A stretch of 5,573 nucleotides of DNA, taken from NCBI RefSeq assembly GCF_003334765.1, contig NZ_QOWT01000064.1; one strand, 5' to 3'. The position numbers were made by a program, and so were the translations under genes. Under the pieces are notes generated by a model, which saw only the letters and a program-made list of their open reading frames with translations, did not search any database and was not told the DNA's origin. Positions 4,473-5,573 of the stretch are shown piece after piece. Within the stretch, counting starts at the first letter, position 1. Each line of letters starts with the position of its first letter. This DNA comes from Escherichia coli (GTDB lineage Bacteria; Pseudomonadota; Gammaproteobacteria; Enterobacterales; Enterobacteriaceae).

Positions 4473-4801
4473 TTAATACCCCGCCGTTAAATCATCCACC
4501 AAGCGCGAGTCGGATGCGCCGTACAACTCACCATCCGACCCAACCATAATGCTTTGCGTGCTGCCCATCGCCTCATTCAGCGCCACTTTCTGACCTTTTG
4601 CTTCCAGCAGCTTGAGCGTATCCGGACTAAACCCTTTTCAACACGCAGCTCGTCCGGCAACCACTGATGGTGGAAACGAGGCGCATTGGTCGCTTCGGCA
4701 ACATTCATTCCACAATTGATGCTGTTCACCACCATTTGCGGCACGGTAGTGATGATCCAGCTACCGGTAACAAAGTGAGTACATAAAGACCATACTGTCA
4801 C
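4473..4801 (-). pseudogene. ggt: gamma-glutamyltranspeptidase 3' remnant (last ~105 codons), 5'-truncated and frameshifted
   Basis: Minus-strand translation gives ...VTGSWIITTVPQMVVNSINCGMNVAEATNAPRFHHQWLPDELRVEKG, then after a 1-nt frame change ...LLEAKGQKVALNEAMGSTQSIMVGSDGELYGASDSRLVDDLTAGY*. This is near-identical to the recalled E. coli GGT C-terminus (...GSRIITTVLQMVVNSIDYGLNVAEATNAPRFHHQWLPDELRVEKGFSPDTLKLLEAKGQKVALKEAMGSTQSIMVGPDGELYGASDPRSVDDLTAGY). The frameshift maps to the A3 run at 4629-4631 (T4 expected on the coding strand). Similarity is lost upstream of about 4790; the listed ORF begins at a GTG. Confidence 0.85.
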
Positions 4802-4844
4802 GAACAGTGCAAAAGTGGCTCTTCCTCAACCTAGGTGAAGATTT

Positions 4845-5573
4845 TCATGCCAGTGGACTCATTACCCTCCGCCTAAGTAGTTCAAGTCCGGCTCGACCAT
4901 ACATCTGGCGTATCAGCACCTTCAGGCGATTTACATGACCTTCGACAACACCAGTACTCCAGCGACTGCTGATTGCCTCACATATAGCCGCAGCATCAGC
5001 TTCCATCCCCGCAGCTACGCACCGAAGTTCTGCTGAGCCGCTTTCGTGGACCCGAGTGAACCAACTGCTTAGCTGTGATTTATTTTAGGTTTTCAGAATA
5101 CGGTAGAACTCGAGTACCAGTTGCTGCGCTATTTTCAACTCCGGTTCTTTTTCACACATCAGACTAATAAATCGGAAAGCATAATTTTCTTCACCCCTGA
5201 TTATTCTCCAGGGCATCAACCAGCGGCTTACCCGGGACACTGAAGGAAGTCTTGCGGCAGTAGTAACCGGTGGGATCCAGCCTTTATGCCATTTGGCAAC
5301 AGCATCCCTGACGATGGTTTCACTGCCTGTAACCCCCCTGGCCACCATTTCCCGCCATATCCGGCCGGAGTTATAATTACCACATTCTCGTTGCTCTTTT
5401 AACCACTCCCTCCATGGGTCCAGAAGCCCTCGCTTTGGAGGCCTAGTTGACATTTCAGGGAATGTTCCTGAACCCACCCAGCGACTGACTGTCACTCGCG
5501 ACAGGCCTGTAATACGGGATATTTCCCTGAAACTACATCCCTTGTTATGCAGGGCCATAACCTCTGTCCAACG
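4845..5573 (-). mobile_element. Degenerate transposase remnant (N-terminus beyond window edge; in-frame TAA at 5085-5087; no DDE core recognisable)
   Basis: One minus-strand frame is open from the window edge to TGA at 4845-4847 apart from a single TAA (5085-5087). N-terminal part (…EVMALHNKGCSFREISRITGLSRVTVSRWV…LLDPWREWLKEQ…IWREMVARGVTGSETIVRDAV) parallels the HTH and following helical region of IS21-family IstA (recalled IS100 IstA: [27 protein letters not shown]…LLDEYRDYIRQR…[21 protein letters not shown]). C-terminal tail (STGVVEGHVNRLKVLIRQMYGRAGLELLRRRVM) resembles the conserved tail of ISL3-type and other DDE transposases. No D-D-E catalytic block is evident between them, so the family assignment is uncertain. 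Confidence 0.5.

Follow-up and report, generated by a model that had tools for sequence, protein, structure and literature searches.

A frameshifted ggt fragment as the probable edge of a relocated rikA gene block in an Escherichia coli island

The stretch of DNA analyzed here, hereafter called the window, comprises 5,573 nucleotides (nt) of Escherichia coli (NCBI RefSeq assembly GCF_003334765.1, contig NZ_QOWT01000064.1) and carries on its minus strand a short remnant of ggt, the gene encoding gamma-glutamyltranspeptidase (GGT). This stub faces a cluster of four genes headed by rikA and has an insertion sequence (IS) on its other side. We conclude that it is very likely the non-functional right-hand edge of a relocated block of ~4.5 kb (positions 297-4766), the resident ggt being untouched. 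A previous description of the window (the original prediction), made without database searches, had instead taken the stub for what was left of the host's own gene after an IS-mediated deletion.

A partial second copy of ggt beside cobUST

The minus-strand segment 4473-4766 (294 nt) aligns with the 3′ end of K-12 ggt (b3447) at 92.5-92.9% identity (E about 1e-115 to 1e-120), so that the comparison by BLASTN confirms what the original prediction had proposed for this segment, i.e., a ggt gene reduced to a frameshifted 3′ stub next to an IS. The homology starts exactly at the stop codon (TAA, the complement of 4473-4475) and ends at 4766, alike against K-12, Salmonella, and Citrobacter. The 5′ break is thus located at 4766 and not at 4790-4845 as first proposed, and the stub corresponds to the last 97 codons and the stop of a protein that has 580 residues in K-12, and not to ~105 surviving codons. 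With one base restored, its translation reads GSWIITTVPQMVVNSINCGMNVAEATNAPRFHHQWLPDELRVEKGFSPDTLKLLEAKGQKVALNEAMGSTQSIMVGSDGELYGASDSRLVDDLTAGY followed by the stop, corresponding to K-12 residues 484-580. The stub and K-12 ggt are alike in ending with the same C-terminal DDLTAGY and stop, and their last 294 nt are 92.9% identical, yet 9 of the 97 amino acids of the repaired stub differ from K-12 GGT; at about 93% of nucleotides, the resemblance falls short of the near-identity to E. coli GGT described at first. A 1-nt homopolymer frameshift had also been predicted and does exist, although it maps to the run of T at 4635-4638 and not to the AAA at 4629-4631. In coding sense, K-12 reads GAA AAA GGG at this site, and adding one base to the stub restores LRVEKGFSPDTLKLLEAKGQ. 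The same deletion is common to three independent stub copies.

Such a fragment falls outside what defines a functional GGT (NF007187 and TIGR00066), being short of full length, below the curated score, and broken in its reading frame. The repaired stub matches the NCBIfam gamma-glutamyltransferase model NF007187 at profile positions 485-581 of 581, with 190.8 bits against a cut-off of 990. The fragment begins at the codon equivalent to residue 484; the large subunit is missing, as is Thr391, the catalytic and autoprocessing residue of E. coli GGT, whose full precursor is about 580 residues long. No ggt sequence was found upstream of 4766, either in the window or in the genomes matching it. In thousands of genomes, RefSeq already labels the stub a gamma-glutamyltransferase pseudogene, partial and frameshifted, and an ordinary gene remnant is what it is.

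The source genome of the window lies outside the genome collection used for comparison, in which the best match reaches 99.6%. E. coli FY26 and six other genomes match the whole window at this identity, in agreement with the Escherichia-like host that had been suggested. In complete genomes, the locus adjoins ldtA-cobT-cobS-cobU amid IS1, IS2, IS3, IS66, and IS110 debris, and the neighboring island content includes TonB-receptor fragments as well as zinc-ribbon, inovirus Gp2-family, AlpA-like regulator, YfjI-family, and GTPase-family proteins. The region around the stub is a CP4-44-type island beside cobUST. Over 5426 complete E. coli genomes, the junction running from the phosphotriesterase-related gene (php) through the stub to the IS was present in 2527. 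An assembly artefact was considered and rejected, as the identical junction recurs in about 2500 complete genomes from many laboratories.

In the same 5426 genomes, 5423 carry a full-length ggt, defined as a place covering at least 80% of the 1901-nt K-12 ggt query. The full-length gene occupies a slot between yhhY and yhhA, and stub-bearing genomes show two ggt places while K-12 has just its native one. In FY26, the stub is found at 91,293-91,585, whereas the native ggt (WP_000595129.1, no pseudogene flag) lies about 1.7 Mb away at 1,778,204-1,779,937, in the order yhhY-tssD-yrhA-yrhB-ggt-yhhA-ugpQ. The native genes of OV24 and JMK_KBN3987 bear no pseudogene flag either, and their translation gives a single terminal stop. 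The search for a second ggt, put forward with the original prediction, thus led to an intact copy in FY26 between yrhB and yhhA. We also observed that native ggt is itself unusually diverse within E. coli, with 1518 records 90-95% identical to K-12 over 1.9 kb, and that native GGT has 577 residues in OV24 and FY26 versus 580 in K-12.

These data bear directly on the possibility that the adjacent IS removed most of the host's own ggt in situ, with the cassette inserted alongside and the strain left GGT negative. In its favor are the frameshift of the fragment and the presence of an IS 29 bp away from the break. However, the stub does not sit at the ggt locus but in the island beside ldtA-cobT-cobS-cobU, about 1.7 Mb from ggt in FY26. 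Every full-length locus compared has ggt flanked by yhhA and ugpQ, neither of which is present beside the stub, whose 5′ side consists of a short filler and an ISEc38-like element. In addition, the full-length gene is kept in nearly all genomes, as counted above, with that of FY26 annotated as intact; in the very genomes that carry the stub, the native allele is 7-9% different from it; and the adjacency of cassette and ggt is ancestral synteny, as described below. We consider in situ deletion to be almost out of the question, and neither the loss of most of ggt to an IS nor a GGT-negative strain is upheld. The stub is a second, partial copy of ggt and not the resident gene. It differs from K-12 ggt (yrhB-ggt-yhhA-ugpQ) in comprising residues 484-580 only, in its frameshift, in the hairpin next to it, and in its island locus beside cobU, and the genuine ggt coexists with it in the same genomes.

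Arrangement of the rikA cluster and ggt in related genomes

To place the stub in its wider context, we turn to the four genes that face it. In Salmonella Typhimurium, the corresponding cluster is rikA (STM3547)-STM3548-STM3549-STM3550; RikA has ribokinase activity, the remainder is uncharacterized, and the function of the cluster beyond this activity is still undescribed (PMC13432705). The word ggt has no occurrence in that paper (PMC13432705), and our literature search found no paper linking STM3551 with ggt. We scanned 100,044 genomes, one per bacterial species, using the phosphotriesterase-related protein as the query. The closest loci were those of three Citrobacter species (87-88%) and Salmonella enterica subsp. 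diarizonae (85%). Window positions 297-4766 gave one colinear blastn alignment to each of these four loci (L006-L009), with 75.6-76.8% identity. At the protein level, the cluster is 79-96% identical to the S. diarizonae and Citrobacter loci (the tblastn comparison covered the four proteins and Ggt), and the cassette genes are 75-80% identical to Salmonella and Citrobacter at the nucleotide level.

In Citrobacter, the gene order is gntR-yhhW-yhhX-yhhY-rikA-GATase-DMT-php, converging on ggt, with yhhA-ugpQ beyond it, and ggt is full length (580-581 residues). As far as ggt, S. diarizonae has the same gene order; the compared sequence stops inside this gene, at the codon for residue 413. The window likewise keeps the order and orientation of all four genes, and beyond them the opposite strand carries the 3′ end of ggt. 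Since this colinear, convergent arrangement is kept in S. diarizonae and three Citrobacter species, the adjacency of the cassette and ggt is ancestral. The original prediction that the cassette had been inserted convergently against ggt was thus right about the convergence but not about the insertion, as the two are ancestral neighbors that moved together. In Budvicia, Klebsiella spallanzanii, Providencia, and Proteus, the cassette is found without an adjacent ggt. Comparison of the yhhY|ggt slot, which also drew on loci L085 (6452-8734), L086 (1-4844), L089 (7040-11938), and L006-L009, showed that it is variable: it is empty in OV24, contains tssD (Hcp-like)-yrhA-yrhB in K-12, FY26, and JMK_KBN3987, and, in S. 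diarizonae and Citrobacter, is occupied by the rikA cassette.

The likeness between the window and the Salmonella and Citrobacter clusters consequently extends to order, orientation, and the ggt junction, and is colinear from 95 bp before rikA to 294 nt into ggt. They differ in that ggt stands in its conserved context in those genomes, whereas the block in the window is excised, cut inside ggt, bounded by IS, and lodged in an island, with a nucleotide identity of just 75-83%.

Two further observations concern rikA. The 95 bp preceding it (297-391) are 89% identical to S. diarizonae, versus 75-80% for the coding genes, which suggests a conserved promoter or operator for RikA, a DeoR-domain protein. 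Moreover, rikA of the window has lost one ATTC from the tandem ATTCATTC at 1359-1366, and the frameshift costs the kinase its C-terminal part with the NTAGAGDAF motif. FY26 carries Q81* instead, upstream of Met90, which has been suggested as the real RikA start (PMC13432705), while the copy of locus L090 is intact. Hence, inactivation of rikA is proceeding in separate E. coli lineages, independently in each. The coordinates of all features are given in Table 1.

Table 1. Coordinates of features in the 5,573-nt window
Feature	Position	Strand	Remarks
IS110-like ISEc45 end	1-75	-	Inserted into the IS66 remnant; transposase coding sequence ends at window position 16 in FY26
IS66-family remnant	76-283	+	Terminus …ATTCTCCATTAACGCTTAC; about 13 bp short of the block
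rikA cluster and upstream region	297-4433	+	Colinear with the Salmonella/Citrobacter chromosome
rikA, DeoR-PfkB kinase	392-1606	+	Frameshifted in the window
GATase1-like gene	1616-2374	+	
DMT transporter gene	2431-3396	+	
Phosphotriesterase-related gene (php)	3399-4433	+	
GC-rich hairpin	4441-4467	.	Within the 39-bp spacer (4434-4472) between the convergent php-like gene and ggt stub
ggt 3′ fragment (pseudogene)	4473-4766	-	K-12 residues 484-580 and stop; nucleotide identity, NF007187 match, RefSeq annotation
1-nt deletion site	4635-4638	-	T4 here versus T5 in every full-length ggt compared; shifts the reading frame
Filler	4767-4795	.	29 bp; separates the last position homologous to ggt from the IS terminus
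ISEc38-like ISL3-family element, right-hand part	4796-5573	-	Leaves the window and reaches about 6559

Boundaries of the block and the convergent spacer

The right-hand boundary lies within ggt, from which the neighboring IS is separated by the filler. This filler matches neither the ggt of K-12, Salmonella, or Citrobacter nor independent ISEc38 copies, and megablast of a 33-nt filler query against E. coli genomes returned this locus only, at one place per genome. We tried to extend the ggt homology by way of a 12-nt deletion between GCTACCG repeats; this gains just five bases (GTAAC) and was taken as chance. The break therefore does not abut a transposase-like remnant, as had been stated: 29 bp intervene, and the neighbor is a full-length ISEc38-like element with a premature stop. 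Its terminal inverted repeat opens with TGTCACGAACAGTGCAAAAGTGGCTCTTCC at 4796, and independent plasmid ISEc38 copies can be aligned exactly from this point (TGTCACGAAC...) at about 94.7% identity. Genome 13C1065T preserves the far (left) end of the element intact (L001, at 14160). The element thus has both terminal inverted repeats (44-45 nt), which delimit 1764 bp, and a transposase-length open reading frame (ORF) that is colinear with ISEc38; it shares the identity, the repeats, and the length of known ISEc38. It differs from them by a premature stop in the transposase, by the lack of 8-bp direct repeats (the flanks GACCATAC and GATGTGAA differ), and by its position 29 bp from the ggt break. 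The premature stop is a CAA>TAA nonsense codon at 5082-5084 (minus strand) relative to plasmid ISEc38, ahead of the transposase stop codon at 4845-4847, and probably renders the copy immobile. With about 5% divergence from plasmid copies in addition to the nonsense codon, this copy is old.

On the left, RefSeq annotates IS66-family transposase fragments at 76-283. Independent plasmid copies of the IS66 family cease matching at 283-286, and homology to Salmonella and Citrobacter begins at 297-298. Some IS66 copies of pAA-type plasmids appear to match across 17-283 at about 88%. The ISEc45 insertion at the very start of the window is present in FY26 and a few relatives and absent in 13C1065T, to whose locus L001 the window is homologous from position 76 onward; it was inserted later, in the lineage of the window. 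Neither junction of the block is a clean IS-target junction. Because both edges lie 13-29 bp from IS termini, an IS-associated rearrangement is the likely agent of excision and capture, although the exact cutting event cannot be read from the junctions.

A part of the island is also found on a plasmid. On the conjugative IncF plasmid pARG01 (NZ_CP049937.1, E. coli JL05; locus L087, 7660-15063), we observed the php gene, the ggt stub, and an ISEc38-like element, together with the island genes for zinc-ribbon, Gp2, and AlpA proteins, adjoining IS2 and IS1. pARG01 has thus taken up part of the island.

The spacer between php and the stub contains a hairpin with a GC-rich stem of 11-12 bp and a fold energy of -22.4 and -24.9 kcal/mol on the two strands (z -4.0 and -3.7). 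On the minus strand, a 12-pair stem is followed by the tail AATGGTTTTA, and the scan called it terminator-like; the plus-strand tail (GTCAATTAAT) is poor in T. A hairpin was found in the convergent spacer of every locus compared, and that of the window (CCCCCGGC...GCCGGGGG) resembles the cassette-bearing loci, where S. diarizonae and Citrobacter have a hairpin of the CCCGG...CCGGG type, unlike K-12. It is probably a shared bidirectional terminator. The stub had been thought to keep its own stop codon and terminator. It does keep the stop and a downstream hairpin, but the latter shows no homology to the K-12 ggt terminator in the alignment. Their retention is unsurprising given the geometry of the locus: as convergent genes share a spacer, any fragment that runs past the end of the operon includes both.

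Decay, age, and origin of the stub

We then compared the stub with functional ggt genes. Its identity is 91-93% with four native ggt alleles of E. coli, versus 81-83% with Salmonella and Citrobacter, from which K-12 ggt is about as distant (83-84%). The synonymous distance (pS) separating the stub from the E. coli alleles is 0.18-0.26, compared with about 0.6 for the outgroups. Six synonymous states, at coding positions 42, 63, 126, 207, 210, and 234 of the 294 nt, are common to the stub and the outgroups and absent from the four E. coli alleles sampled. Together with the distances, they assign the source allele to the Escherichia branch, at or slightly beyond the allele diversity of present-day E. 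coli as far as the alleles compared can tell. A donor other than Escherichia, such as a Citrobacter or Salmonella chromosome that passed on block and stub directly, would explain why only these genomes were found to have the cassette beside a full-length ggt. Such a donor is nevertheless most improbable, as the stub is closer to E. coli alleles than to the ggt of these genomes by the above identities, the stub and K-12 ggt lie at the same synonymous distance from them, and the cassette genes are just 75-80% identical in nucleotides.

Changes specific to the stub comprise 11 substitutions, of which 8 are nonsynonymous and 3 synonymous, and 1 frameshift. The nonsynonymous changes (R>W, L>P, D>N, Y>C, K>N, P>S, P>S, and S>L) hit residues that are invariant in 8/8 full-length genes, and pairs of functional ggt genes have a ratio of nonsynonymous to synonymous distances (pN/pS) of 0.04-0.09. 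These stub-specific changes indicate neutral decay. The window, FY26, and the more divergent AH21E028 agree exactly in where ggt is truncated, in the frameshift, in the filler, and in the IS junction; the AH21E028 stub has one further stop. Since divergent copies share an identical structure, the stub arose once and was then inherited and eroded.

We also considered whether the stub is retained for a function, be it as a spacer or insulator, as the 3′ end or terminator region of the operon shielding it from the IS, or through a small product encoded by the ORF at 4577-4801 (74 amino acids). The hairpin is stable on both strands and the structure is kept in about 2500 genomes, both of which could be expected of a selected element. 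However, 8 nonsynonymous to 3 synonymous changes fit neutrality, further nonsense mutations occur in some lineages, and a single origin followed by inheritance with the island accounts for the wide distribution. The 74-residue ORF extends past the ggt homology into non-ggt sequence and is an out-of-frame artefact of the frameshift, starting in the filler; a scan detected no promoter-like site within 4300-4950, which leaves its expression without support. A search of the whole window against Rfam (E <= 0.1) returned no RNA family. A retained function is accordingly improbable, if somewhat less so than a donor outside Escherichia.

Taken together, our preferred reading is relocation of the block, as follows. 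A rikA-STM3548-STM3549-STM3550 operon would have been convergent with ggt in the source genome, with a 40-50-bp spacer and one hairpin between them, as S. diarizonae and Citrobacter have to this day. The block 297-4766 would have been cut from the yhhY|ggt slot of an Escherichia-like chromosome, the right-hand cut falling in the ggt codon that corresponds to residue 484 and the left-hand cut about 95 bp upstream of rikA. It would then have come to lie in the CP4-44-type island beside cobUST that now carries it in about half of E. coli genomes. The stub has drifted neutrally since its truncation, gaining the frameshift on the way, and the hairpin would now most plausibly terminate the rikA-php operon.

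Several points weigh against this account. No E. coli-type cassette was found beside a full-length ggt, and the species-representative scan gave no Escherichia locus. A protein search for the donor, which covered 5.8 billion proteins, returned the E. coli cluster at 99-100% and, apart from one intermediate, nothing more until about 88%, the level of S. bongori and others; the donor is thus one that we infer and did not observe. The 29-bp filler and the missing direct repeats prevent assigning the cut in ggt to ISEc38, the terminator function of the hairpin is a prediction, and the native ggt of the source genome was checked by proxy, in the closest genome. The sole intermediate retrieved by the protein search, P0007 (91%, 315 residues), proved to be a copy from the same cobU island with an altered C terminus.

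Gene remnants at the edges of IS-bounded or island-borne segments form a general and well-known class. The stub resembles its other members in being part of a neighboring gene, co-mobilized with a cargo operon and decaying neutrally, and is unusual just in its age and its wide distribution in E. coli. Its biological weight is little, as the fragment encodes nothing and GGT is supplied by an intact gene elsewhere. Because the resident ggt is untouched, no GGT phenotype is expected, and a GGT-negative strain should not be predicted from the window. This calls for caution in annotation and phenotype prediction, since a partial ggt match in E. coli is usually an island-borne relic.

The stub is also of use as a boundary marker, by which the rikA cluster of E. 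coli would derive from the yhhY|ggt chromosomal slot and not from a foreign mobile element. With about even odds, it may be a datable fossil of an early Escherichia that held the rikA cluster in this slot, from which IS carved the cluster into an island while the core copy was lost or replaced by tssD-yrhA-yrhB. If this is true, the locus would be a traceable case of gene flow from core genome to island, and the 11 substitutions and 1 indel accumulated in 294 nt would provide a clock for the age of island cargo.

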